A stretch of DNA of 64,000 nt from the NCBI GenBank assembly GCA_951406725.2, contig OX597832.1, positions 558,001-622,000 on the forward strand, given 5' to 3'. Within the stretch, counting starts at the first letter, position 1; each line of letters starts with the position of its first letter. The position numbers were made by a program, and so were the translations under genes. The notes beneath the pieces were generated by a model that was not told the origin of the DNA, did not search any database, and saw only the letters and a program-made list of their open reading frames with translations. Positions 16,000 to 52,550 of this stretch are shown piece by piece. The stretch comes from Octopus vulgaris. Lineage: Eukaryota.

Positions 16000-18900
16000 A
16001 TGCAATCAACCCCTATGCATAGCACTCGTGGAAACTCACCTCAGCCCTGATATAGAGGATGCAGAAGTATAAGTAAAACCACTTATTACTTATTACATAT
16101 ACTTATTATACTTATTACTTATTATCTGGCAGACACGTTAGCGCGCCGGGCGAAATGCTTGGCGGTATTTCGTCTGTCGTTACGTTCTGAGTTCAAATTC
16201 CGCCGAGGTCGACTTTGCCTTTCATCTTTTCGGGGTCGATAAATAAAGTACCAGTTTCGCTTTTCCTCAAGGAATGCGATTAGTTTCTTTCTGACTATCC
16301 GTTCCATGACTTTGCTGATGTGTGAAGTCAGAGAGATAGGCCTATAGTTTTTGGCATCTGCTCTGCTTTCCCCTTTATGTATTGGGCATATTATTCCCTC
16401 CTTCAGCTTGCTTGGCAGTTTGCCATTTGTAAGAAAGCTCTGGAAGAGAATCTTGAGGGGTTTTGCCATACTGCGAACTGACAGAAGGGAAAGGAGCCAT
16501 GGTGGAGTTGCTGTATACATCCGAGATGACCTCACACCCCAGGTCTTAATGACATACTCAAATTCGGTATGTGACACTTTAATTGTATACATAGACAACA
16601 TAATATAGTCATATGCAATACATATTGCCCACCGGATGCTCCAAATCACATAGGCAAGCTTGAAGATTGCCTCACAAGAATTAAAGAAATCCTCATAAAT
16701 CTGGAACACCACATGACCATATTTCTTATGGGTGATTTCAACTTCCCCAACGTCAAATGGCCCGAAGGTATCATACACTCTCAGGAATGAATCATTGCAA
16801 GCAAGTACAGGTGGAGTCCCTGCTCAACCTCACCAATGCCTTATTCATGGAGCAAGTTGTACTCAAACCAGCTAGGGCGAATAACATTCTGGATCTCTGC
16901 TTCTTCACGAACGATATGGACATCATTCATGATGTGAAAGTGACACCGACATTAGTTTCGGATCACAACATAATAGAGCTGTCTATGTTTGGACCGAAAG
17001 TAACCAGAGACATACAGCCAAAAGGAAGCACCCAAAATCTCTCCAATCTGAACTTCCACAAAGCAGATTGGAAATCGATCCAAAAAGAGATCCTCAAAGA
17101 GGACTGGCCGGAATGTCTCTCCACACCATTGATATGAAACTAGAATGTTTCATGTCTTCTGTGCAAGCCGTATGCCAGAAATATCCCAGAGCACAAGGCC
17201 AAAACAAATAGGAGCAAGATTCCAAGAGACAGGAAGATCCTCATGAGACGACGGACGAAGGTTGCAAATCGTTTCAACCAACATCCCAAAAGTAGCGAAA
17301 CGTCCCGCCTAAAAACAACACTAATAGAGATCGAAAAAAGGTTGCAATAATCCTATGTGAGGGAGAAAGCAGACAAAGAAGCCTGGGTTATAAAAAAACA
17401 TTAAATCAAACCCAAAGGCCTTCTTTCATTACGCGAAAGAAACAGTCTCAGTGCACTACAAGATAGGACCCCTCCTCCAAAAGGATGGCTTCTTCACAGA
17501 CAGTCCAACTAAGATCAGTGAGATGCTGAATGAGCAGTTCGAAAGTGTCTTTACCACCCCGTTGGAACACAGACAAGTAAATGAACCAGTGGACTTCTTT
17601 GCCGCCTCACCTATAACCAGCGAGGCGGTTACAATAGAATGTATTGACATTAGCGAAGAAGATGTCCTACTAGCCATAGATGAAGTGGACACAAACTCAA
17701 CTGCTGGTCCAGATGGTTTCCCAGCAATCCTCCTCAAAGCGTGTAAGCATGCCCTGGCAAAACCCCTCAAGATTCTCTTCCAGAGCTTTCTTACAAATGG
17801 CAAACTGCCAAGCAAGCTGAAGGAGGGAATAATATGCCCAATACATAAAGGGGAAAGCAGAGCAGATGCCAAAAACTATAGGCCTATCTCTCTGACTTCA
17901 CACATCAGCAAAGTCATGGAACGGATAGTCAGAAAGAAACTAATCGCATTCCTTGAGGAAAATAACTTGCTGAGTGATACCCAGCATGGTTTTCGATCAG
18001 GTAGGAGCTGCCTGACCCAGCTCTTACAACATTATGTCTGGGTGTTGTTACTCAACAAATCAAATGTGGACGTAATCTACCTTGATTTTGCAAAAGCTTT
18101 TGACAAGGTGGATCATGGTATGATATGCCACAAACTGCGTGACCTCGGCATAGCTGGAAAACTTGGAGTGTGGTTACATGACTTCCTGAAAGATAGGAGT
18201 CAGGCAGTAGTGGTTAATGGAGCCACCTCTATGAACACACAAACAGTGAGCTGTGTTCCACAGGGCACTGTCTTGGGACCACTGCTTTTTATAGTGGCCC
18301 TCTCAGATATGCCCTCAAATGTCCGGATAGCCACTCTGGCAAGCTATGCAGACGATACGAAAGTCTCACAGAAAATACAGAATCCCAGCGATGTTGCACA
18401 CCTGCAGCAGGAGTTGGACTCAATCTACAGATGGGCTGAGGATAATAATATGCAGTTTAATGCTGAAAAATTCCAGGCCCTGCGCTACCAGCATCCAAAA
18501 CTGAATATTAAACTTACAGGATACACCGGTCCACAGGGAATTTCAATCCCAGAGTCTAAGTCTGTGAGGGACCTGGGTATCGACATGAGTGAGGATACCT
18601 CTTTCCAAGTGCACATTACCAGGATGGCGACAAAGTGCAGACGACTGGCTGGGTGAATCGTAAGAACATTCAAAACCAGAGATAAGGAAACCATGATGGT
18701 CCTCTGGCGGACATTCGTCCTCAGCCGCCTGGATTACTGCTCACAGCTATGGTCACCCAGCAGTGTGAAATTAACAGCGGACCTTGAAGCAATCCAGAGA
18801 AGATTCACAAAGAAGATCGTCTCTTTGCAACAGCTCAGCTACTGGGAAAGGTTGAAACAGCTAAGACTCTACTCCCTGGAGAGAAGACGGGAGAGGTATG

Positions 18901-19338
18901 CAGTAATATATGTTTGGAAGATCCTGGAAGGAATTGTGCCAAATTTTGGCATTGTAAGCTACACCAATGCTAGAACGGGACGACACTGCATAGTGCCAAA
19001 GATCCCAGCAATACCATCACGCTTCAGGACCAGCTACTGCAACAGCCTAGGTTTCAAGGGCCCACAGCTTTTTAATGTTCTCCCAAAGAGTCTGAGGAAT
19101 TAACACAAAGTAGATATCGCGGTTTTTAAATCAAAGCTGGATATCTTTCTGTCGAGAGTCCTAGATGAACCTACCTCACGGCAAGAGGTGCAAATGATAG
19201 TAGCTATATCAAACTCCATTCTTCACTAAGTGCCACATATTAGAGGAGGCTCTTCGCAATAATAGTGTAGCACAAAACGGCGGTGCATCAGCATGGCCGC
19301 AGCTCTGAGCTGAAACTAGAAAAACGGAAAAACGGAAA
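16000..19338 (+). mobile_element. CR1-clade LINE, ORF2 (APE endonuclease + RT), disrupted
   Basis: ETHL, HGGVAVYI, MGDFNFP, SDHN; NYRPISLTS, YLDFAKAFDKVDH, VPQGTVLGPLLF, YADDTK, SRLDYCSQLWSP, YSLERRRERY; short (GAAAAACG)-type tail repeat. Confidence 0.9.
17451..18656 (+). pseudogene. Reverse transcriptase domain of CR1-clade LINE
   Basis: 401-aa open segment with RT motifs, bounded by stops and frameshifts. Confidence 0.9.
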
Positions 19339-23779: not shown

Positions 23780-26700
23780 AATAGAAATATGTTACAAAAA
23801 GAAAATAGAAACTACACGTAGAAATGTAAGGGGAAAGTAAGAAGAAAAATAAGCGAAAGTGCACATTGGAAATAAAATAAGTAAAGGCTTTCTATGAAAA
23901 GTAACGAAAGATACATACAATTAAATGAAGTGAGGTAGGAATAAAAGTAATAAAAGTCATTATTGTGAATTGTTAAAGGGATTTAAAAGCATACCGGTTT
24001 CGTAAATTACTAATCATTGCTTTGAATCATTGCTTTGAATGCACACCAATTAATGAACAGCGTCAGGTCTATTAGTCCCTGAGAGAAAAGAGTATGTGTA
24101 AGGGAGGTAAGTAGTTCTGGATTTGGTGAAATTAGGGTAGATATAGATCTGTAATGTGAATGGTGTATGGGATATATAGGGGTCAGTGGCATTAATTGAA
24201 AGGTTAGTAGTGTTCTGTATTATATTATGTGTTCATATTTAATTGGGGAAGATATTTATTGATGAAAGTTGCCTCTTTATTAATTCTTTGTTGCACTGAG
24301 GTGTTCTGTGAACATTGATAGAAGGGGAAAATTATGAAATTAAGATTAAGATTCCTTGCACACCTTTCTATGTGTTCACTTACATGTATCTGTTTGTATT
24401 GTGGATGGCGGATTTGTTCTTTGTGAAGAGTGGTTCTTCGACGGAGTGATATTCCTGTTTGGTCAATATAGTTGATACCACATCCTAAGCATGTAATGGC
24501 ATAGACTAGATTTTCCGAGGCACAGGTGAAATTTGATTTGATCTTAAACATTTCACCTTGTTTAAAGTGGAATTCTGAACCCTCCAAAAGGTGGGGGCAT
24601 GTACCACGGTTAGGTCGACTACGTTTTTTCACTTTTGGTTCTGTTGTTAATGGATATAGTCTTGCGCTGGTTAATATTTTTTCAATGATTTAGGTTGCAT
24701 TTTGCTTTTGATAATTTTGTATGAGCTCAAAATTTTGTTCATTGTTTTATTTCCTGTGAGGATGGGAAGGTTTTGGATGATAATGTTGAAGGCTTCGTTG
24801 TTTCTAGGGTTATGCGTGGAGATGTACGGGAGTATTTTAAAGTCAGGTTTAGTATTTCGGTTGGCTTCCCTTAATGTTCGTATGTCTATTTCCTTAGCTC
24901 GTTTAATGCCATCATTTATTAATGATATTGGGAAATGTCTTTTAATTAGTATTGATCTGAGTTCAAGGAGTCTTCGTTCACGAGTATAGGTGTCCGAAAC
25001 TATGGTACAGATTCTTTTCGCTGGATTATAAGGTATATCAATTTTTATGCGTTTGGGGTGGCATGAGTTAAATAATAAGTATTGTTTAGAATCTGTGGGT
25101 TTATAATAGATGTCTGTTTCGATGTGGTTATTGACTATTTTAATTAGGATGTCAAGAAAAGGGAGTTGTTTACTGTTGTGTTCCATGGTGAATTGTACGA
25201 GGGGCGTTCAATAAGTAATGCCCCTGACCCACTTCCCATAGCAGTAGAGCAACGAAACTTGGCACAGTTATTAGTCTTTTTCTACATAGGAACCACCCAG
25301 AGTTACGCATTTCTCCCATTGCTTGATGCAACTCTGGAGACCGTTTTTGTAGAAGAACCCAGCTTGGTCCTCCAACCTCAACGTGACTTCAGAAATCAAG
25401 GCTGCATCATCTGGGAAACGCTTTCCTTTCAAAAACAACTTCATGACTGGGAAGAGGTGAAAATCAGAGGGTGCAACGTCAGGAAAGTACGGGGATGGGG
25501 GAGGAGTTCATAGCCACACGCCTGTGCTTCTGATCTGGCGACAAGCGAGTTGTGGACCGGAGCGTTGTCCTGCAGGAGGAGGATGCCTTTGCTGATCTTT
25601 CCCCGCCTCTTGATTTTGATAACTTCTCTTAATTTCCTCAAAAGTGAAGCATAATAGGCTCCTGCAAATGTGGTACCCTTTGCCAGGAAATCTGTCATCA
25701 CTACTCCGTCCTGGTCCCAGAAGACTGTGAGCATGACCTTGCCAGCGGAGGGCTGCACCCTTGCCTTCTTTGGAGGGGGTGAGTCACGATTCTTCCACTG
25801 CATTGACTGGGCTTTGGTCTCTGGATCATCGTGATGGACCCAGGTTTCATCCTGTGTAATCAGTCTTTTGAAAAATTTTGACTCATCTTCTTGGCACATC
25901 TCCAAATTCACCCTCGAGCACTCGACGCGTTCTTGCTTCTGGAAAGGCGTGAGCAGCCTGGGAATCCATCTGGCAGACACCTTTTGCATATGCAAATGGT
26001 CATGAATGATAGTTTCCACAGACCCGGTACTAATCTTGACCTCATGGGCTATTTGGCGAATAATTATGCGTCGATCTTCCAAAATGGCAGCCTCAACTTG
26101 ACGGACAGATGCTTCATCAATGGCAGAAGGGGGCGACCAGATCTGGGAGCTGTTTCCACAGAGTTCCGACCATGTTTGAATTCACGATGCCAGCGTTTTA
26201 CAAGGTCATATGATGGGGCATCATCACCATAAGTTACTTTCATTTCATCAAAAGTCTCCCGTGGTGTGCGTCCTTTCAAATACAAAAACCGGATCACTGC
26301 TCGACACTCAACAGGCTCCATTTCACACTTGACTCGGTTGAAACACCTGTAAATCAGAAACCACAATTAATTCAGAGCTGTAATTCGCCACTTAATCTAT
26401 AGAGATATAAATGATTGCACATGCAATTTCAGCTAGATCAAACAACTGCAAGTGGGTCAGAGGCATTACTTATTGAACGTCCCTCGTATATTGCTATTAA
26501 TATTGTAAAGCATTATTTTGAAATCGAGGAGTTTGTCCATGCTGTATTTCCAAAGTATAAAATAATTTATCGAAATACCTCTTCCAGTTCTTTAAATGAA
26601 ATGAGGTGCCATATTTTGTAGTGAGGATTGATATAACTTAAGCTCTAGGTAACCCATTACAAGGTTCGCAATCACTGGAGCAGCTCGGGTTCCCATTGCA

Positions 26701-30390: not shown

Positions 30391-30435
<45 letters not shown>

Positions 30436-30444
30436 ATAATTATT

Positions 30445-30744
30445 AATAGAAATATTAAAATTACTAAGTCTCTCTAAAACAGATTACGGCAGCGTTACTG
30501 GAAATTAATTGTTATCGCCATATTAATATGCCAGTCTTATAGATATAAGACTAAAGCTGTCGCTGATTAGCCTCATGAGGCCATCGCCTTAAGCTAGCTA
30601 TTTGACACAAAATCGGCGTCCATTATAACCTTCGAACAAGGGAGGTCAGCCGCTTCACACTGCCAGTCAGACAGCTACAGACGCGTTTCAGGGTAGTTGC
30701 CCTTTGTCAATGCAGCGTAGTCAGACCCAGCAAGTGTCGCTACT
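30445..30744 (-). repeat. pLTR-like host repeat, left part, interrupted by the ORF1-only array
   Basis: 30445-30558 recurs directly at 35914-36027 and 30504-30636 recurs inverted at 36030-36163; contains a hammerhead. Confidence 0.75.
30674..30716 (-). ncRNA. Minimal type I hammerhead ribozyme with compensatory U3-A8 core
   Basis: Minus strand GCTGCA-TTGACAA-AGGG.CAACTA.CCCT-GAAA-CGCG-TC-TGTAGC. Confidence 0.7.
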
Positions 30745-32360
30745 ACTATCTTTATTATAGGCACGATGGCCCGAATTTAGAAGGGACATTACAAAAACAG
30801 GACGTGGGGTAAATAAATTTTTAAATAAAAATATGATATGAAAATGAATTATATATAATGAATTATATGGAATGTTTACGAGCCCCCCAAAACTCGTAAT
30901 TTCATTTAAAATACAGTTCTGTTATACTGGGCGTTCATCTGTAATGTATTATATTAAATCCTCCTGATCTATTATTGCAGGCAAACTATCGTAACGGATA
31001 TATTGCATTACACAAACAGTTGAAAACACATTTTTCAATTTTAAAAATGTCTCTTTCTCTATCTCCGCCGACTTCACTTGATCATCAAATATTTCTGGGT
31101 TTAGCCTAACTCTGATTAAACCTTTCTTACCTGCCAGTCTTTTTTAGATTTCTTTGTCTTTCATATACAATATTACAACCTTAAGATTTTTTCCTTCGAG
31201 TCTTCTTCCTTCTTTGCATACTTTTAACTTCTCTGCCACTCTTCTTTTCCATTTTTGGTCTACCGTTAAATTTTCCGGTTCTCTCTCTGTCTCTTTTATA
31301 TTCTTATCTTCGCACATACTATCATCCTTCTCGTCTGTAGTCTTATTTTTCGTTTTTTTCTTTTTTTTGAACTTTAGGTGGTGATTCCACCCTCGCTCTT
31401 TTTCTATCTTCTTTTCCTTCTGTTTTTTCCTTTTCTTTCTCCAACTCGTCACCACTTTCCACATTTTCTGTGTTTACTCATTCTACATTCTCCATTTGCA
31501 CTATCTCTGTCCGAGTGTTTAATGTTCTAGTCGGACACACATCTTTCATGTGGCCTCTAATTTTACACTTGTAGCACACTTGTGGTCTCCCCTCCACCAC
31601 GACTCTAAGTCGAGTCTCGTCGGGGAACACCAACTCCTCTGGGATTTTATACAGATCAGGTATGGTTATATGAATCAAAACCTGCACTGCATAACCCCAC
31701 CACTGTACATCTTTTGATTTTTTAACATTTAATATTTCAACGCTTTCTTTGCAGTTGAATACCACTGCTGCTAAGACTCTTTCCATGTTCAGCTCTGGCG
31801 AAATCTTACTGACTCGTATTCTAACTGCTCCTTTCCCACGATAACTTGGTAATAACATCCATTTTTCTGTTTTCAATATTTGCGTAGCGTTCTTCTTCGC
31901 TTCTTCTTCGTTTTTAAAATGGACGACCACTGTTGCATATTTTCTACCTCTGTTATAGAAGGTAGGTTCTCCTTCAAGTCTCTGCAGACAACACTCAATC
32001 TCCGCAATTTCTGCCAATTCTATTTTCTTTGAAGCCACATTCCACGTTCTGTATGTTATAATACGTTTTTCAGCTTCTTTAGCTTCTTCTTCAGGTGGTG
32101 TGATCCTTACACAGTCACCTTCTCTTTTTAAGCTGTCGAAATAATTCTTCAAAATCTCCTTCTCGATTGTAACTTCTTCCAACTGTATTTCGCTTGCAGC
32201 CAGGTCCTTGCTTGCCGCTCCTGCATACGTTTGGGTTTGCATTTTTGAGAAAAAATCCCTCAATGCCGCAACCACTTCCACCAACTCATTCGATCTCACA
32301 ACCTCCACTCAATAATAACGTAATCAAATCTCCGACACCAACAAACAAAAAAACTTGCAG
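30745..32360 (-). mobile_element. ORF1-only retroelement unit 1 (divergent, frameshifted)
   Basis: ORF pieces 31478-32308 and 31144-31464 are homologous to unit 2; CYKCKIRGHMKDVC knuckle; AATAAA at the 3' end; bounded by GTGTCGCTACT. Confidence 0.85.
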
Positions 32361-32371
32361 GTGTCGCTACT

Positions 32372-34097
32372 GAAATCTTTATTATAGGCACTAAGGCCCG
32401 AATTAAGAGGGGACATTACAAAACAGGACGTGGGGTACATAAATTAAAAAATCGAAAAATATGAGGTGAAAATGAATATTTATAATGAATTAGATGGAAC
32501 GGCTTACGAGCCCCCCCAAAGCTCGCAGTTTCATTTAAATTACAATTTTACAATTTACAATTACATATATTACTCTGCTACGTCGGGCGCTCGTCTGTAA
32601 TGCTTGGTTGTTCATCTGTTATATACTCCATTAAGCTCTCCTGATCCACAATAGCTGGTAAGGTGTCATAACGTACATATAACCATTCAATTACACTATA
32701 ATCATATCGCATTTTCTGCACTGTCTCTTTCTCCACGATTACCGCCTTCCACAGGTCATCAAATATTTCTGGGTTCAACTTTACTCTAATTATGCCTTTC
32801 CTACCTGCCAACATCTTTTCCGTATTTTTGTCCTTGTCGTATAACATTACCACTCTGTGTTTCTTTCCCTTGGGTCTTCCTCCTCTCTTACAAGCTTTCA
32901 ACAGCTCTTTCATTCTTCTGTCCCATTCTTCTTCTGCTGTTGGTTTTAGCGGTTCACTCACTTCTGCTTTTGTATCCTCTTCTCCCGTTCGGTTTTCCTT
33001 CTCGTCAGTAATCTTATTTTTCGCTTTTTTCTTCATTTTTTGTTCTTTAGGTGGTGATTCCACCAGCGTTCTTTTTCTATTTTCTTTCTCCAACTCTTCA
33101 CCACTTTCCGCATTATCTGTAGTAACGATTTCTCCCTCCTCCATACACGCATTTTGCAACTCATTCGTTAAAGTCTCCAGTGCTATCGTTTTCTCCTGCA
33201 CTTCTCCCAGCGGACACACATCCTTCATGTGGCCTCTTATTTTGCATTTGTGACACACTGGGGGTCTCCCCTCCACCACGACTCTGAGACGTGTCTCGTC
33301 GGGCAACACCAACTCCTCCGGTATGTTATACAGGTCAGGCATTGTAACGTGGACTAACGCCTGCACTGCATAACCCCACCACTTTACATTTTTTGATTTT
33401 TCGACTTTCAATATTTCCACGTTTTCTTTGCAGTTAAACACCACTGCTGCTAAAATCCTTTCCATATTTAGTTCGGGCGAAATCTTGCTTATTCTTATTC
33501 TTACAGCCCTTTTCCCGCAGTAGTTTGGTAAACACATCCATCTATCAGTTTTTAAAATTTTCGTTGCGTTCTTCTTCGCCTCGTCTTCACTTTTAAAGTG
33601 GACGACCACCGTTGCGAACTTTCTACTTCTGTTATAGTAGGTAGACTCTCCTTCTATTCCTTTAAGACAGCATTCAACTTCCTCTATCAGTGCCACTTCT
33701 ATTTTTTTAGAAGTCACGCTCCATGTTTTGTACGTTATAATCCGTTTCTCCGCTTCTTCCGCTTCTTCTTCGGGTAGTGTGACCTTCACACAGTCACCCT
33801 CCTTCTTCAAGCTGTCGAAATACTTGTTCAACGTCTCCTTCTCGACGAAGACTTCTTCTAACTGCAATTCGTTCGCAACCAGGCCCTTGCCTGCTGCACC
33901 CGCATACGTCTGGGTTTCCATTTTCGAGAAAAAATCTCAATAAAATTTTTCACGCCGTAACAACTTCCACCGCCGGATTCGATCTCACGAACCGCGACAC
34001 CACAATAACGTAGTCAAAATTTTTCCGCCGCCAAAAAAATACAGCTACACAAATAACGCAATCAGAAATCTCCGTCACCAAAAACAAAAGCAAGCGG
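32372..34097 (-). mobile_element. ORF1-only retroelement unit 2 (intact ORF)
   Basis: 5' UTR, 447-aa ORF, 3' UTR ending AATAAAGATTTC; bounded by GTGTCGCTACT. Confidence 0.88.
32578..33921 (-). CDS. Gag-like / LINE ORF1-like nucleic-acid-binding protein (RRM-like region + CX2CX4HX4C knuckle + charged tail), Tx1/L1 ORF1-like
   Basis: Uninterrupted 447 aa; FATVVVHFKSEDEAKK (RNP-like), CHKCKIRGHMKDVC; the clade assignment is inferred. Confidence 0.8.
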   Translation of the reverse strand: METQTYAGAAGKGLVANELQLEEVFVEKETLNKYFDSLKKEGDCVKVTLPEEEAEEAEKRIITYKTWSVTSKKIEVALIEEVECCLKGIEGESTYYNRSRKFATVVVHFKSEDEAKKNATKILKTDRWMCLPNYCGKRAVRIRISKISPELNMERILAAVVFNCKENVEILKVEKSKNVKWWGYAVQALVHVTMPDLYNIPEELVLPDETRLRVVVEGRPPVCHKCKIRGHMKDVCPLGEVQEKTIALETLTNELQNACMEEGEIVTTDNAESGEELEKENRKRTLVESPPKEQKMKKKAKNKITDEKENRTGEEDTKAEVSEPLKPTAEEEWDRRMKELLKACKRGGRPKGKKHRVVMLYDKDKNTEKMLAGRKGIIRVKLNPEIFDDLWKAVIVEKETVQKMRYDYSVIEWLYVRYDTLPAIVDQESLMEYITDEQPSITDERPT

Positions 34098-34108
34098 GTG
34101 TCGCTACT

Positions 34109-35838
34109 GAAATCTTTATTATAGGCACTAAGGCCCGAATTAAGAGGGGACATTACAAGACAGAACGTAGGGTACGTAAAGTAAAAAAATCGAAAATTAT
34201 GAATTGAAATGGATATTTATAATGGATTAGATGGAACGGCTTACGAGCCCCCCAAAGCTCGCAGTTTCATTTAAATTACAATTTCACAATTTACAATTAC
34301 ATATATTACTCTGCTACGTCGGGCGCTCGTCTGTAATGCTTGGTTCTTCATCTGTTATATATTCTATTAAGCTCTCCTGATCCACAATAGCTGGTAAGGT
34401 GTCATAACGTACATATAACCATTCAATTACACCATAATCATTTCGCATTTTCTTCACTGTCTCTTTCTCCACGATTACCGCCTTCCACAGGTCACCATAT
34501 ATTCCTGGGTTCAACTTTACTCTAATTATGCCTTTCCTACCTGCCAACATCTTTTTATGTATTTTTGTCCTTTTCGTATAATATTACCACTTTGTGTTTC
34601 TTTCCCTTGGGTCTTCCTCCTCTCTTACAAGCTTTCAACTGCTCTCTCATTCTTCTGTTCCATTCTTCCTCTGCTGTTAGTTTTACCGGTTCACTCACTT
34701 CTGCTTTTGTATCCTCTTCTCCCGTTCGGGTTTCCTTCTCGTCAGTAATCTTGTTTTTCGCTTTTTTCTTCTTCTTTTTTGTCCTTTGGGTAGTGATTCC
34801 ACCCGCGTTCTTTCTCTATTTTCTCTCTCCAACTCTTCACCACTTTCCGCACCATCTGTAGTAACGATCCCTCCCTCCTCCACACACGCATCATGCAACT
34901 CATTCGTTGAAGTCTCCAGTGCTATCGTTTTCTCCTGCACCTCTCTCAGCGGACACACATCCCTCATGCGGCCTCTCACCTTGCACCTGTGACACACTGG
35001 GGGGCCCCCCTCCACCACGACTCCGAGACGCGTTTCGTCGGGGAACACCAACTCCTCCGGGATGCTACGCAGGTCAGGCATTGCAATGTGGACCAACGCC
35101 TGCACTGCACAACCCCACCACTCCACATCCCTTGACTCCTCGACCCTCAACACTTCCACGCCCTCCCTGCAACTAAACACCACCGCCGCCAAAATCCCTT
35201 CCACATCCAGTTCGGGCGAAATCCTGCCCATTCCCATTCTGACCGCCCCCCTCCCGCAGCAGCCCGGCAGACACATCCATCCATCAGTCCTCAAAACCTT
35301 CACTGCGCTCCTCCTCGCCTCGTCCTCACTTCCAAAGTGGACGACCACCGTTGCGAACCTTCCACCTCTGCTACAGTAGGCAGACCCTCCCTCCACTCCT
35401 CCAAGACAGCATTCAACCTCCCCCATCGGTGCCACTTCCATCCCCTTCGAAGTCACGCTCCACGCCCCGCACGCTATAATCCGCTTCTCCGCCTCCTCCG
35501 CCTCTTCCTCGGGTGGTGCGACCTTCACGCAGTCACCCTCCCTCCTCAAGCCGTCGCAATACCTGTTCAAAGTCTCCCTCTCGACGATGACCTCCTCCAA
35601 CTGCAACTCGTTCGCAACCAGGCCCCCACCCGCCGCACCCGCACACGTCTGGCTTCCCATTTTCGAGAAAAAATCTCAAAAACCTCACCACGCCGCAACA
35701 ACCTCCACCACCGGACTCGATCTCACGAACCGCGACACTACAATAACGCAGTCAAAACCTTTCCGCCGCCAAAAAATATACAGCCACACACCAACAACGC
35801 AATCAGAACTCTCCGTCACCAAAAACAAAAACAAGCGG
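34109..35838 (-). mobile_element. ORF1-only retroelement unit 3, A-to-G hypermutated over its 5' ~1 kb
   Basis: Colinear with unit 2 (offset about 1739); ORF pieces 34695-35660 and 34314-34550; substitutions K>R/G/E, E>G, Y>C, I>V/M, T>A, N>S/D, H>R. Confidence 0.9.
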
Positions 35839-35849
35839 GTGTCGCTACT

Positions 35850-36163
35850 GATCGTCTCTGTTCGAAGGCTTTATTTACCTAGTTTCGGTGGAATACATCC
35901 CCTTATTTTCAATATTAGAAATATTAAAATTACTAAGTCTCTCTAAAAGAGATTACGGCAGCGTTACTGGAAATTAATTGTTATCGCCATATTAATATGG
36001 CAGTCTTATAGATATAAGACTAAAGCTTCTTCGAAGGTTATAATGGACGCAGTTTGTGTGTCAGATAGCTAGCTTAAGGCGATAGCCTCATGGAGCTAAT
36101 CAGCGACAGCTTTAGTCTTATATCTATAAGACTGCCATATTAATATGGCGATAACAATTAATT
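35850..36163. repeat. pLTR-like host repeat, right part, with a second partial unit and a fold-back arm
   Basis: Continues the host after the last GTGTCGCTACT; direct and inverted copies of 30445-30636. Confidence 0.75.
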
Positions 36164-46299: not shown

Positions 46300-48470
46300 G
46301 ACATGTACACAATCAAGCGGCAAAAAGGGGCCTTCCACATGCTTATATCCTGCTTTGGCTCTCAGCGAAGATCAATTCCAATGACATCGACAAGATAATC
46401 TCTACAGAGCTTCCTGTAGACAAAGAACTATACGAAATAGTTAAAGCAAACATGGTACATGGTCCATGTGGGCGTGGATTCAACATAAACACACCATGCT
46501 TGAAGGACAGCATAAGTTCAAAAAGATTTCCAAGGAGGTTCCTACAAGAAACTCAGACAGGTGCTGACGGGTATCCATCATACAGACGCAGAAAACCAGA
46601 AGACGGAGGTTTCACGGCAACTATCGGACAGCACGATATTGATAATAGATGGATTGTTCCATACTGCCCACTCCTGTCAAATACTTTCAATGCCCACATT
46701 AACGTTGAGTTTTGCAACTCCGTTAAATCCATCAAGTACGTTTGCAAATATGTAAACAAGGGTTCTGACGCTGCAATGTTTGGACTTCAACAAGAATACT
46801 GCCTGGATGAGGTGACGCATTATCAGGTGGGACGGTACATAAGTAGCAACGAGGCTTTCTGGTGCATCTTTGGCTTTCCAATTCACCGACGACACCCCGC
46901 CATTAAACAGCTTGCAGCGCACCTGGAAAATGGTCAAAGAGTGTACTTCACCGATGCTAATGCTTCTCTGTTGGCAGAGGAACCAAGGGATAGCACACTC
47001 ACTGCATTCTTCAAGCCTTGTCAAGTGGATCCATTCGCTCCAACCTTGCTGTATCCACAGATTCCATCGTACTACACTTGGATTAGAAAAAAATGGGCCC
47101 CACGGAAAGCAGGTCAAAATGTTCATGGATACCCTGGCATTAAGTTTCACACTTGCCTTGGGCAAGTATACACAGTGCATCCCACTCAACAAGAGTGCTT
47201 CTACCTTCGTCTACTACTGCATGAGGTCAGAGGGCCAACGTCTTTCCAGGTCCTAAAAACCGTTCATGGACATGTCTGCACAACATACAGAGAAGCCTGC
47301 TATCGACAAGGTCTGTTAGAAGATGGTGCACAATGGGATGCAACTTTAGGAGAGGCTGCTTTATCACAATCACCTAAAAGTCTCAGGGCACTATTTGCAG
47401 TATTACTACAGGCATGCGAACTGTGTGATCCGGCCACTCTATGGCTCAAATATAGAGACTTTCAGCGCCAAGCTCAACTGCTCTATCCTGACATGGAGGG
47501 TATCAGCAATGAAATCTATAACAAAACACTCATTGACATTAAAGACAGAATTGCTAAACTGGGTGGAAATGAATTGTCGACGTATGACTGGCCTGCCACA
47601 AGCATTCAGGTCAGGGTTAAATAGCCTTCCCACTGCTGTCATTCGTGAAACAACCTACGACACTCAAGCGCTTTCAAAGTACATTGTTGAAAATGAGCCT
47701 AAATTACTTCCGGACCAGCTGCAGGCCTACAGAACTATTCTTAACAGTGTACGCCAACGCAAGGGACGAATCTTCTTCCTCGATGCTCCTGGAGGGACAG
47801 GAAAAACATTTATTACAAAGCTTCTCCTTGTAGAAGTTAGGCAGCATCAGGACATTGCAGTAGCTGTAGCCTCCTCTGGCATTGCAGCTACTTTGTTACC
47901 CGGTGGCAGGACAGCACACTCAACATTTAAACCCCCTCTCAATTTAGCAGCATCCGAAATGCCTTCGTGCAACATCAACAAAAGCTCAGATCAGGGACAA
48001 GTACTTAAAATGTGTCATCTAATTGTCTGGGATGAGTGCACTATAACTCACAAGGGAGCTTTGGAAGACATCCGAGATTATCAGGCTCCAATGGGAGGTG
48101 TAACGCTTCTGTTGTCAGGTGATTTCAGGCAAACTCTTCCTGTCATTCCGAAAAGCATTAGAGCAGATGAAGTCCAAGCATGCCTAAAGTCCTCTACCCT
48201 GTGGCATCATGTTACAATCTTCTGTCTCACCACTAACATGAGAGCTCAGCTACACGGCGACAAAATGTCCACAAAGTTTGCACAGCACATTTTGACACTT
48301 GGTGAAGGCAAGATGCCTCTCGATGCTGCAGGACAAATGGAAGTGTGGTCATTTTCCTCTGTTGTTAATTCTGTAGATGACCTCAAAAACAAAGTATTTC
48401 CCAACTTCACACAAAACTACCAAAATCACAATTGGCTGTGTGAAAGAGCAATATTAGCTCCAAAACAAAA
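46300..48470 (+). pseudogene. Helitron Rep/Pif1-helicase (RepHel), frameshifted and truncated
   Basis: GLPHAYIL (HUH motif remnant), MVHGPCG, DNRWIVPY, SIKYVCKYVNKG, DAPGGTGKT, VASSGIAATLLPGGRTAHS, VWDEC, GDFRQTLPV. Confidence 0.93.
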
Positions 48471-49259
48471 ACACTTCTCTATTTTATGTCAGATACTTTC
48501 ACTTTAACAATAAAAATTAGAGATAATAATAAAAATTGAATTATATGTGGTAAGTAATAATTAAAATCAAACTAAAGTATAATATAATCGTAACATAACA
48601 AAAGTAAAAATAGCAATTGGTATAAAATTGCACCAATGACTTGAACTTGAATAAGTGATTTCACATGAATGGGAATAAATTGAAAATAAAATTAGCGTGC
48701 AGAAATGGAATAGTCCAGATGGAGGTGTGCACATACCGTTTACTACGGCTTTTACGTTAGATTATCTGCTAATTACCTAGCATTAAATATCTATATGAAG
48801 TTTGGCTGTATGTAATGTCTTTCTCCATCTGGACTATTCCATTTCTGCACGCTAATTTTATTTTCAATTTATTCCCATTCATGTGAAACCACTTATTCAA
48901 GTTCAAGTCATTGGTGCAATTTTATATCAATTGCTATTTTTACTTTTGTTATGTTACGATTATATACTTTAGTTTGATTTTACGACAAGATACAATTGAT
49001 CGAAATTGCAAGAGACGGGCCTACAATTCCAGTCTGTTATATATTTTGAGTATTGTTATCACTAGCGATATCAAGATATAACTTTGTATTTTGTATTTTA
49101 TGTGTAGATGCATATATATAGATGTACATGTAATATGTACACATATGTATACACATATATACATGCACTAGCACTATCACCCGGCAACGACGGGTGATAA
49201 TGCTAGTATATAATAAAAAAGAGTGAAAAACACACCAACTCTCTCACCTATATATAGAC

Positions 49260-52200
49260 TGCCCGCTTCAATGGGTGCTTGGAGCTAGGACAAAATCTGA
49301 AAAGCAGACTGAAAACGCTGCACCAGCAAACAAAGGAAAAACAAACACCCAGTCACCAGTCTTGCGACTGGCCACCTGGAATGTCAGGACCATGTGCCCT
49401 GGCATCATTGACGATCTACGACAGATGAACGACAGTAGGAAGACAGCAGTCATCAACACCGAATTGAAAAGGCTGAACATCGACATAGCGGCGCTGCAAG
49501 AGACCAGGCTCGCCGCAGACGGCATGCTACGGGAGAAGGATTACACCTTCTACTAGCAGGGGAGACCCGTCGAGGAGGCCCGCCAGCATGGCGTGGGGTT
49601 TGCCGTGAGGAAAGCTTGCTCCCCATGGTGATCCCTCCTTCAAATGGCTCAGAGCGCATCCTCACTCTTAACCTTGCAACATCAACGGGGAAGGCAAACA
49701 TAATTAGTGCTTATGCCCCAACACTCCACTCTCCTCAGGAAATAAAAGACCGGTTCTATGAGGAGCTCGACGCCACCATCAGCCAGATACCAGGGCCAGA
49801 GCCCATCTTCCTTCTGGGCGACTTCAACGCAAGGGGCATGGCCAGATTGCCTTGGACGCTTTGGCGTGGGGAAGGTGAATGAGAATGGCCAGAGACTGTT
49901 GGAGCTTTGCTCTTACCGGAAACTGCGTTTCCAACACATTCTTCATGACTAAGCCGCATCACCAGGTCTCATGGAGGCACCCAAGGTCCGGACACTGGCA
50001 CCAACTGGACATGGTCATCACCCGGCGAGCCCACCTCGGCAGTGTGCTTCTCACACGCAGCTACCATGGTGCTAACTGTGATACAGACCACTCTTTGGTG
50101 TGCAGCAGGGTCCGATTGGCCCCAAAGAAAATCAACCGTCCCGTAGGGAAAAGCCGCCCACGCATCAACACCGCCAGGACAACCAACCCCGACCTCCGCT
50201 CGGAATTCACCAACTGCATGGAGGAGGCCCTTAAAGATCACGCAGCCACGTCCATCGAGGAGAGATGGCAGATTATTCGCGACACCACTTGCAGAATAGC
50301 CATGTCATCCCTAGGAAAGAGGGAGCGGAGAAATCAAGACTGGTTTGAAGCTCGCCTGCCTGAGATGGAGCCTGTCATTGCTGCCAAGAGGGAAGCACTG
50401 GTCAACTATAAGCGCGACCCATCAGAAAAGAACCTGGCTACTCTGAGAACAGCCAGAAGCGACGCCCAGAGGACGGCCAGACGTTGCGCCAACATCTACT
50501 GGCAGAACTTATGCCAGAACATCCAGTGCTGTGCTGACAGTGGTAACGTGAAAGGGATGTACGAGGGGATGAAGAAAGCATTCGGGCCCACTGTCAGAAA
50601 GGTTGCTCCACTGAAGTCCAGAGATGGCGAGGTCATCAAGGACCACGCGAAGCAGATGGAGAGGTGGGTCGAGCATTACCAGAACCTCTACTCCACTGAG
50701 AATGTGGTCACCAGGTCTGCCCTCGCCGGCATTCCTGCTCTGCCTGTCATGGAGGAGCTTGACCTGCCTCCAACAAAGGAAGAACTGAGCAAAGCAATTG
50801 ACTCACTCGCTCGGGGCAAGGCACCAGGGCAAGATGGTATCCCCGCAGAAGTCATCCAGTGCGGGAACCAGCCCTTCTGGGCCATCTCCACGAGCTGCTC
50901 TGTCAGTGCTGGGAGGAGGGCTCTGTTCCTAAGGATATGCGTGACGCAAACATCATCACACTGTATAAAAACAAAGGGGACAGAAGCGACTGCAATGATT
51001 ACAGGGGCATATCACTGCTCAGCACTGTCGGTAAGGCATTTGCCAGGGTGGTCCTGAAGAGGTTGCAAATACTTGCAGAGCGTGTGTACCCCGAGTCTCA
51101 GTCTGGCTTTAGGGCAGAGAGGTCTACAATTGACATGATCTTCTCACTCAGGCAGCTTCAAGAAAAGAGTCGAGAACAGAGACAGCCCCTATACGTGGCC
51201 TTCATCGACCTGGCTAAGGCGTTCGACTCAGTCAGCAGGGAGGGGCTGTTTGCGCTCCTGTGTAGGATAGGTTGCCCTCCCAGACTGCTGAAACTCATCA
51301 CCTCCTTTCACGACGGTATGCAGGGAACAGTGCAGTTTGACGGATCGCCCTCGGAGTCATTCCCCATCCAGAGTGGAGTGAAACAGGGTTGCGTTCTGGC
51401 GCCGACGCTCTTCGGAATTTTCTTCTCCCTTGTCCTGTCCTATGCCTTCAGAACGTCCGACGACGGAGTGTTCCTCCACACCAGGGCTGATGGATTGTTC
51501 AATCTTGCGCGCCTCAGAGCTAAGACCAAAGTCCGTCAGGTGCTGATCAGAGAGATCCTCTTTGCTGACGATGCCGCCCTAACATCACACAACCAACCGG
51601 GTCTCCAGAGGCTGGTCAGCTCCCTGGCGGATGCCTGCCAAGAGTTCGGCCTTACCATCAGCCTGAAAAAGACAGAGATCATGGGCCAGGACGTCGGAGG
51701 GGTCCCCAGCATCAGTGTCGGCGACCACAGCTTGCAGGTGGTGAACGAGTTCACTTACCTGGGATCGACGGTCTCCAGCAGCCTGTCCCTCGAGCCGGAG
51801 CTGAACAGACGGATTGGGAAGGCTGCTGCTGCCATGGCTAAGCTCTCCAGGAGAGTGTGGGAAAACAACATGCTCACAATAACCACCAAGATCGCAGTGT
51901 ACCGAGCCTGCGTGCTGAGCACCCTACTCTACGGCAGCGAGAGCTGGACAACATACACCCGGCAGGAATGCCGCCTCAGCGGCTTCCACATGCGGTGTCT
52001 TCGACGGATCCTTGGCATCTCCTGGAAGGACCGAGTACCAAACCGAGTCATCCTGGAACAGACTAATATGCCAAACATGTATGCCCTCCTCGTGCGGAGA
52101 CGACTGCGCTGGCTCGGACACGTCTGCCGCATGCAGGACGGTCGCATGCCTAAAGACATCCTGTACAGCGAACTCACCACGGGATCCCGACCCAAGGGAC

Positions 52201-52550
52201 GTCCACAGCTACGATACAGGGACGTGTGCAAGCGCGACCTGAGGACTGCCCACATCTGTGTGGACACGTGGGAGGAAACAGCTGCTGACCGCTCTGCCTG
52301 GCGTCGGACGGTGAGGAAAGGCGTTTCCATGGCTGAGGAGAGGAGAGCACAGCTGTGGTTGGACAGGCGGGACAGGAGGAGGACAACTGCAGCAACACCC
52401 CACACGTACCCATCGATGTTCGTGTGCAGCAAATGTACCAAGGACTGCCACTCTAGAATTGGACTGTTCAGTCACAGCAGACGCTGCACATCATCAAAGT
52501 AGGCCCCACCCTTGGCGCAACCCATTGTCTATCAAGACAGACGGGGTAAA
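49260..52550 (+). mobile_element. Near full-length RTE-clade LINE (EN + RT + C-terminal zinc finger) with few lesions
   Basis: ATWNVRT, IAALQETR, LGDFNAR, DYRGISLL, FIDLAKAFDSV, GVKQGCVLAP, LFADDAAL, CSKC.KDCHSRIGLFSHSRRC; short 3' UTR followed by an A-run. Confidence 0.95.
50859..52502 (+). pseudogene. RTE reverse transcriptase ORF segment (547 aa open)
   Basis: Complete RT motif set, separated from the upstream part by a frameshift near 50860. Confidence 0.92.

Follow-up and report, generated by a model that had tools for sequence, protein, structure and literature searches.

The array described here consists of three full-length insertions of an ORF1-only element family at a single target, duplicated each time, inside a hammerhead-bearing repeat. 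In our reading, which we consider quite probable, the three arrived serially by means of the enzymes of a complete LINE of the L1/Tx1 group, and one of them (unit 3) likely derives from an RNA that had been hyperedited by ADAR. Judged from its sequence, the element is a HAL1-like half-LINE of the L1/Tx1 group: non-autonomous, site-specific and target-regenerating. An ORF1-only family of this kind, re-inserting at one site of another mobile repeat, had been proposed from the DNA of this locus, and the empty sites, fixed flanks and purifying selection described below bear the proposal out. All positions refer to the window, a stretch of 64,000 nucleotides of Octopus vulgaris DNA, and Table 1 collects the features.

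Table 1. Positions of the array, its host repeat and their parts within the window.
Feature	Positions	Strand	Basis
Host repeat, downstream part; hammerhead-bearing, retrozyme-like, ~358-bp monomer; ends at a (TA)n run	30434..30744	-	
Type I hammerhead-like motif: stems I and II of 5 and 4 bp, a minimal stem III and a U3-A8 core variant; cleavage predicted after 30680	30675..30715	-	anatomy
Target core, junction 1 (unit 1 3′ end / host)	30734..30744	.	11-mer search
Unit 1, full-length ORF1-only element of the second subfamily; ORF 32242-31478 stops after 254 aa	30745..32360	-	
Target core, junction 2; duplication is 32357-32373	32361..32371	.	11-mer search
Unit 2, intact ORF1-only element	32372..34097	-	
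Conserved 3′ tail, 45-nt block with end AATAAAGA, no poly(A)	32372..32420; also 30745-30795, 34109-34157	-	
Unit 2 ORF1 of 447 aa, with RRM-like domains in tandem, a CCHC knuckle at 33214-33255 and a charged C-terminal region	32578..33921	-	
Target core, junction 3	34098..34108	.	11-mer search
Unit 3, full length and hyperedited (A>G); frameshifted ORF of 321 aa at 35660-34695; His of the zinc knuckle to Arg	34109..35838	-	
Hyperedited stretch, 126/276 A to G, approximate bounds	34940..35798	-	
Target core, junction 4 (host / unit 3 5′ end); predicted host transcription start ~35846, minus strand	35839..35849	.	11-mer search; start inferred
Host repeat, upstream part; rearranged inverted piece 36026-36163	35850..36163	-	
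U2-promoter-like (PSE-like) motif, two changes from the common host form; ~57-59 nt before the predicted start	35894..35909	-	

A pattern search of the window found the 11-mer GTGTCGCTACT exactly at each of the four junctions (30734, 32361, 34098 and 35839), as first noted. Allowing up to one mismatch adds a single, unrelated match at 17291; 0.48 matches would be expected by chance, and none of 100 shuffles gave five or more. Between the junctions lie units of 1616, 1726 and 1730 bp (units 1, 2 and 3), all on the minus strand. When the array's left flank was used as a genome query, all 29 other host loci (two of which are one place) proved to be empty sites, in which the 11-mer continues into the right-flank sequence. 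The target is thus host DNA and the units are insertions, and the expectation that taking the units out would restore the host repeat was correct. The predicted 11-bp target site duplication needs revision in its length: the target is indeed duplicated at each junction, but the 11-mer is only the invariant core of a duplication of 13-17 bp, which reaches 17 nt at the array's host. Across the 47 family copies with both ends, the best match between the flanks is mostly 13-20 nt, the longest ones taking in shared element ends. The last four bases of the 5′ duplicate read CCGC in unit 2-type copies and CTGC in the local host (L002, L004, L005, L010), implying that these bases travel with the element.

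The 11-mer was also considered as the element's own terminal repeat. We reject this, as empty hosts contain it once and the duplications of other subfamilies differ from it. Neither random flanks nor a single-locus host gene amplified in place, the other outcomes that would have spoken against the original prediction, was found either; the gene in particular is ruled out by at least 150 dispersed protein matches to the unit 2 ORF.

The units are not equally preserved. Each had been expected to carry one RRM-like/CCHC ORF, which holds for unit 2 (447 aa) and fails for the other two: unit 1 has a stop at codon 255, leaving 254 aa, and unit 3 is frameshifted, leaving 321 aa. Queries with ORF2 pieces of the complete LINE described below found no ORF2 homology in the array, in keeping with the predicted lack of reverse transcriptase and endonuclease. 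Units 2 and 3 are 88% identical. Unit 1, which had been called strongly diverged, is indeed only 77% identical to unit 2; this reflects membership of a different subfamily, with a close relative (L173) at the same target, rather than heavier decay. The units are not simple DNA duplicates of one another, again as predicted: unit 1 clusters with other loci and not with unit 2, and the nearest copy of unit 3 lies on another contig.

The 447-aa protein matched nothing in Pfam or NCBIfam, and a word-indexed protein search returned no homolog; a profile search returned 887, all unnamed. A fold model built from a 66-row alignment (pLDDT 91) matches tandem RRM structures, the single-sequence model having a pLDDT of 33. 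The features of unit 2 ORF1 are ZCCHC3-like (score 0.91), the CCHC knuckle can be seen, weakly, in nine of ten aligned members, and a PDB profile search with this protein returned no L1 ORF1p. The frame appears to be maintained: among 39 intact frames, drawn from 73 distinct copies, pairs with dS >0.05 have dN/dS medians of 0.10-0.20, values that come from frames selected for being intact and from pairs that are not independent, and for unit 1 against unit 2 dN/dS is 0.123/0.870. ORF1 is under purifying selection.

With unit 2 as query against the 2.8-Gb genome, 57 DNA matches came from the 40 candidates scored out of 293. The prediction that most copies adjoin the 11-mer was upheld close to home: among the best 30 DNA loci, 16 distinct 3′ ends outside the window adjoin the array's target, namely all 12 of the unit 2-like ones and four that are unit 1-like or nearby. 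Twelve more distant copies in the same set have other duplications, with a hammerhead-like core behind nine of them when read by eye. The 11-mer is therefore the target of the unit 1- and unit 2-type subfamilies only, and the family as a whole uses many targets. A hammerhead-like core lies within 90 nt in 26 of the 47 copies with both ends. The insertion position is not fixed family-wide, one subfamily inserting closer to the ribozyme by about 14 nt, the distance to the core being 15-19 nt in its case and 31-37 otherwise. Scans for the junction pattern at the array's host gave 15 hits against 0 in the control, then 16 against 0 (15 family copies and one unrelated), and another scan gave seven places; a first pattern whose gap was too short stayed at control level (6 against 8). 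None of the 3′ junctions examined carries a poly(A) tail, and the hairpin in the 3′ tail is no more stable than shuffled sequence (z of -0.7, -1.0 and +0.5).

A candidate source of the missing enzymes lies in a complete LINE with Exo_endo_phos (APE), RVT_1 and zf-RVT domains and a CCHC ORF1, whose best PDB match is L1 ORF2p; a search with the reverse transcriptase returned mostly unnamed L1/Tx1-type proteins. At three loci (L091-L093), it immediately precedes an ORF1-only copy, from which a single target separates it. The 3′ tail of this LINE has the 45-nt frame and end motifs of the ORF1-only units, and both kinds of element start with CCGC and a T-run, although BLASTN gave no significant DNA alignment between the LINE and unit 1 or 2. 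At the protein level, unit 2 ORF1 aligns with the LINE's ORF1 without gaps over 206 aa (E 6e-29). Identity there is only 26%, which suggests that the array family is an old separate lineage; in a tree, the ORF1-only copies cluster together at a great distance from the LINE ORF1, in a position that long branches make unsure. The LINE is target-specific: its best 30 3′ ends, read by eye, stand before a hammerhead host in 20 cases, before base 1 of U2 snRNA in five, before an ORF1-only copy in three and before something else in two. Four pattern scans found no complete LINE at the array's own target, where the junctions belong to ORF1-only copies, and candidate gaps on contigs C19 and C2 hold other insertions and no complete LINE. 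The autonomous partner sharing the 3′ end that was originally postulated thus has counterparts in complete APE-RT LINEs whose ORF1 is homologous and whose tail is similarly built, but in none with the exact 3′ tail or at the array's target, and for that target the partner is inferred. The partner is likely a target-specific complete LINE of the L1/Tx1 group.

The host repeat forms tandem monomers spaced 335-424 bp apart, and exact matches to its core motif number at least 299 in the genome. Rfam returned no hammerhead match, only chance matches to simple repeats. Pairing in the putative ribozyme is kept despite sequence change: stem I retains all five pairs in 11 of 17 stem variants and four of five in four more; in the core, 26 of 27 variants keep positions 3 and 8 paired, the two covarying across host families. 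Non-LTR retrozymes are described as having type I hammerheads with a weak helix III (PMC7229834, in part), and the host fits such a repeat, with self-cleavage predicted. The RT-like fragment of the window has no match in the 29 host loci. The hammerhead nature of the host, like the multiple targets of the family and a duplication longer than 11 bp, formed no part of the original prediction.

The two kinds of site used by the complete LINE, hammerhead hosts and U2 genes, may have a promoter architecture in common. A matrix of U2 promoters only, built from 18 U2 upstream regions with hand-set +1 anchors after the motif was first spotted by eye, gives its best score at -55 to -59 relative to the start of the target in six of nine host types, including the array's host (shuffle p up to 0.011). 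The motif is absent in the other three, in none of which was a hammerhead core seen. One element inside a U2 gene (L118) begins at its 5′ end with the first 14 nt of a hammerhead-host target. Both the U2-like spacing of the motif and this relic would be compatible with transcription of the RNA from the host's first base onward. We lean, with little more than even confidence, toward the view that host transcription starts at the insertion site, behind an snRNA-type promoter, and that the element RNA begins in the duplicated target and so borrows that promoter.

Unit 3 differs from unit 2 at 210 positions, of which 141 are A>G on the sense strand, 12 are G>A and 15 are T>C, an excess that agrees with the suggestion that this unit passed through an edited RNA. 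Unit 1 has A at 100 of 133 aligned A>G sites. The changes are concentrated: in positions 41-900, 126 of 276 A are altered, against 2 of 94 in the last 326 nt. There is a strong preference in the 5′ neighbour of the edited A (U 0.76, A 0.61, C 0.32, G 0.09; p 1e-17) and an enrichment of G on its 3′ side (p 0.02), with no neighbour preference in an unedited control pair. This context matches the neighbour motif described for ADAR ultra-editing (PMC3197674, in part). The edited stretch also occurs within single contigs, X2 (929 nt, 1 difference), X3 (836 nt, 5), X7 (711 nt, 12) and X9 (350 nt, 2), which derive from DNA runs of independent studies and present the edited form under four organism labels; X7 has A at 4 of 109 edited sites. 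The stretch is therefore part of the inherited DNA rather than an artefact of assembly. Hyperediting of this kind also marks two further copies (L181, L180), one of which has 85 A>G changes and a single change of another type over 720 nt, and in all three the 3′ end is nearly unedited. That makes three of 73 copies, a count that gives no rate since low-identity loci were added on purpose. No double-stranded partner that would account for 900 nt of editing was found; the surroundings of the array contain no unit in inverted orientation, and L028 has an inverted piece of 109 nt. A>G hypermutated avian retroviral DNA provides a precedent. We hold with high confidence that unit 3 came from an ADAR-edited RNA.

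These observations can be assembled into a mechanism. The ORF2p of a complete LINE, acting in trans and recruited by the conserved 3′ tail, would insert the element by target-primed reverse transcription, duplicating about 13-17 bp, and each insertion would leave a fresh target on which the next copy can stack; up to this point we regard the scheme as probable. The start of the element RNA in the duplicated target, driven by the host's snRNA-type promoter, is a step in which we have only slightly more belief than disbelief. A read-through RNA ended by the ribozyme would account for the absent poly(A). For unit 3, whose own ORF1p is crippled (73 of 240 residues differ, including the knuckle His to Arg), the proteins would have been made before editing or supplied in trans, on an RNA whose 3′ tail was spared editing.

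The main alternatives concern how the units reached the site and how the site was chosen. A tandem duplication at the DNA level, whether of one insertion or of a host gene, is very improbable as the origin of the array, and so is an explanation of the A>G changes by mutational bias or assembly error. The similarity of units 2 and 3 would suit duplication, and arrays elsewhere include identical units (L095) for which it is plausible; here, however, it is opposed by the grouping of unit 1 with other loci, by the nearest copy of unit 3 being on another contig, by the dispersed protein matches, and by one-strand changes in an ADAR context that recur in independent studies. A second possibility is that the elements are cargo of the hammerhead repeat, a joint transcript of host and element being cleaved by the ribozyme and returned to the genome by Penelope-type machinery, in which case the site specificity would be inherited. 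Animal retrozymes have been proposed to be non-autonomous derivatives of Penelope elements, which would move them (bioRxiv 10.64898/2026.07.22.740005, in part), and four loci on four contigs (L008, L019, L020, L028) have one common deletion junction that joins host DNA to a 5′-truncated unit 1-type element; at two of these loci there are inverted pieces and (TA)n flanks as well. Host and element have therefore sometimes been copied together, and not every copy is an independent insertion. Cargo transport may account for such copies but not for the array, where it is improbable: each unit has its own duplication around it, two subfamilies only 77% alike occupy one site, near relatives of the units sit in unrelated hosts (L012), and complete LINEs are found at the same sites and in U2 genes, the latter without a ribozyme.

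A third alternative keeps the half-LINE reading and replaces its promoter step, the LINE endonuclease recognising short degenerate DNA and the match to a promoter and start being incidental. Target choice in Tx1 elements is usually credited to the endonuclease (PMC4494074, in part), several of the targets have an A-T/G-C-G plus CC core in common, the promoter motif is missing from three host types and one subfamily is shifted by about 14 nt. We nevertheless think it unlikely, if still a serious contender, in view of close relatives whose targets have little common sequence, the motif at U2 spacing in six of nine hosts, and the relic of another target's first bases in L118. The preferred reading thus remains serial insertion by LINE enzymes, for which the promoter start is one candidate means of choosing the site.

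A bolder generalisation, which we offer tentatively and judge somewhat less than even, is that this LINE lineage and its ORF1-only parasites pick their site by position, at snRNA-type promoter starts in U2 genes and hammerhead repeats, and swap targets freely, and that ADAR-hyperedited RNA can be written full-length and on-site into the germline if its 3′ tail is spared, editing then being a routine heritable mutagen that kills copies. Our observations point to hammerhead repeats as landing sites for LINEs and suggest a testable promoter-start rule for LINE target choice and target swapping, which bears on tools for site-specific gene insertion. In unit 3 there is a clean, dated example of RNA editing that became fixed in the inherited DNA; its wrecked ORF1 and spared 3′ tail also speak to the cis requirements of a retrotransposing RNA. 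A literature search found nothing on ORF1-only Tx1 derivatives, on hammerhead-targeting LINEs or on non-LTR copies that were edited by ADAR and then fixed in a genome; it did not extend to Repbase or to the majority of subscription journals, and an entry in Repbase or Dfam is possible. A recent octopus repeat annotation lists L1-Tx1 families, and a term search of it turned up neither HAL1 nor hammerheads nor editing (PMC13282606).

Each part of the array has relatives among known systems. APOBEC-hypermutated retroelements show, as unit 3 does, dense changes of one type on one strand in a single copy (PMC4866542, PMC2873906, both in part). Those reports describe G>A hypermutation in vertebrate LTR elements, and their G>A screen found none in 19 invertebrates; unit 3, in contrast, has A>G rather than G>A changes, in a non-LTR element of an invertebrate, fixed in germline DNA. 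In its neighbour motif, unit 3 resembles the ADAR ultra-edited RNAs. The host resembles non-LTR retrozymes and the hammerheads of Penelope pLTRs in being a non-coding tandem monomer whose 335-424 bp fall within the 150-450 bp of non-LTR retrozymes, and in its type I hammerhead, where helix III is weak; it differs in two features, LINE insertion and a putative snRNA-type promoter, that go unmentioned in the consulted parts of the retrozyme accounts (PMC7229834; bioRxiv 10.64898/2026.07.22.740005).

The insertion habit is that of target-specific Tx1 LINEs such as Tx1L in Tx1D, Keno in U2 and Tx1-Mar, and of the passenger SINEU-3 (PMC4494074, in part, here and below). In both cases insertion is into another mobile element or U2, and a non-autonomous passenger has its target in common with a LINE; like SINEU-3, the array family has tandem copies that sandwich the duplication and may be transcribed from the flanking target. 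SINEU elements encode no protein, whereas the array family encodes ORF1p; and the known Tx1 hosts are DNA transposons, LTR elements, microsatellites and RNA genes, whereas the host here is a hammerhead repeat whose insertion site aligns with U2 base 1. In the portions of the literature surveyed, no site-specific protein-coding half-LINE such as this one is listed for its group. HAL1, HeT-A and Ag-Sponge are ORF1-bearing non-autonomous LINEs from the L1, Jockey and CR1 clades (PMC5786205, PMC5753468, in part), and they have with the array family a single ORF1p, no ORF2, LINE-like ends and dispersed copies in common; the array family differs in being site-specific and in standing beside a target-specific LINE of the L1/Tx1 group. 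HAL1 proper is derived from mammalian L1, whereas the ORF1 of the array family is of the RRM-RRM-CCHC, ZCCHC3-like type: the family works like HAL1 but is not HAL1.

Four loci spread over as many contigs (L008 on C15, L019 on C10, L020 on C1 and L028 on C9) share one deletion junction, at which the hammerhead-bearing host repeat is joined to a 5′-truncated element of the unit 1 type. Based on this common junction, they represent a composite of host and element that was moved as a single piece. The L028 copy also carries a 109-nt piece of the element in inverted orientation, with (TA)n runs on either side.

Relative to unit 1, units 2 and 3 have the first ~50 nt of the 5′ UTR tandemly doubled (34040-34097 and 35780-35838), and the start of L003, L007, L024 and L025 resembles that of the complete APE-RT LINE. 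Unit 3 is joined as a hyperedited copy by L181 (C4:97.9 Mb) and L180 (C7:29.26 Mb), both from subfamilies other than its own, with an A>G load of ~180-200 across 1.4 kb and the same neighbour preference at the edited sites.

Target choice varies among the relatives. One ORF1-only subfamily (L175, L177, L186 and L188) has its insertion point shifted downstream by ~14 nt from the usual one, which leaves 15-19 nt to the ribozyme core, and the near-identical ORF1-only units of L095-L098 (C4:70.04 Mb, C4:27.05 Mb) form long trains at a non-hammerhead target, adjoined by a second, distant ORF1-only type (~29% identity).

Candidate remains of other mobile elements in the window are listed below. The 140-aa fragment, presumably Penelope-type judging by its motif, had no Pfam match, is separated from the host repeat by (TA)n, and was absent beside 29 other host repeat copies examined.

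Other candidate mobile-element remains in the window
Feature	Position	Strand	Basis
Penelope-type RT-like fragment, 140 aa	29604-30026	-	motif
Helitron-like Rep/helicase	46452-48507		by eye
Mariner-like transposase	25441-25989		by eye
RTE-like RT fragment	49879-52502		by eye
CR1-like RT fragment	17523-19103		by eye

The tandem clusters at C3:20.8 Mb and C23:43.3 Mb contain complete LINEs (L118, L121-L123 and L126) whose insertion point is base 1 of a U2 snRNA gene; the 5′ end of L118 retains a relic of a different target.
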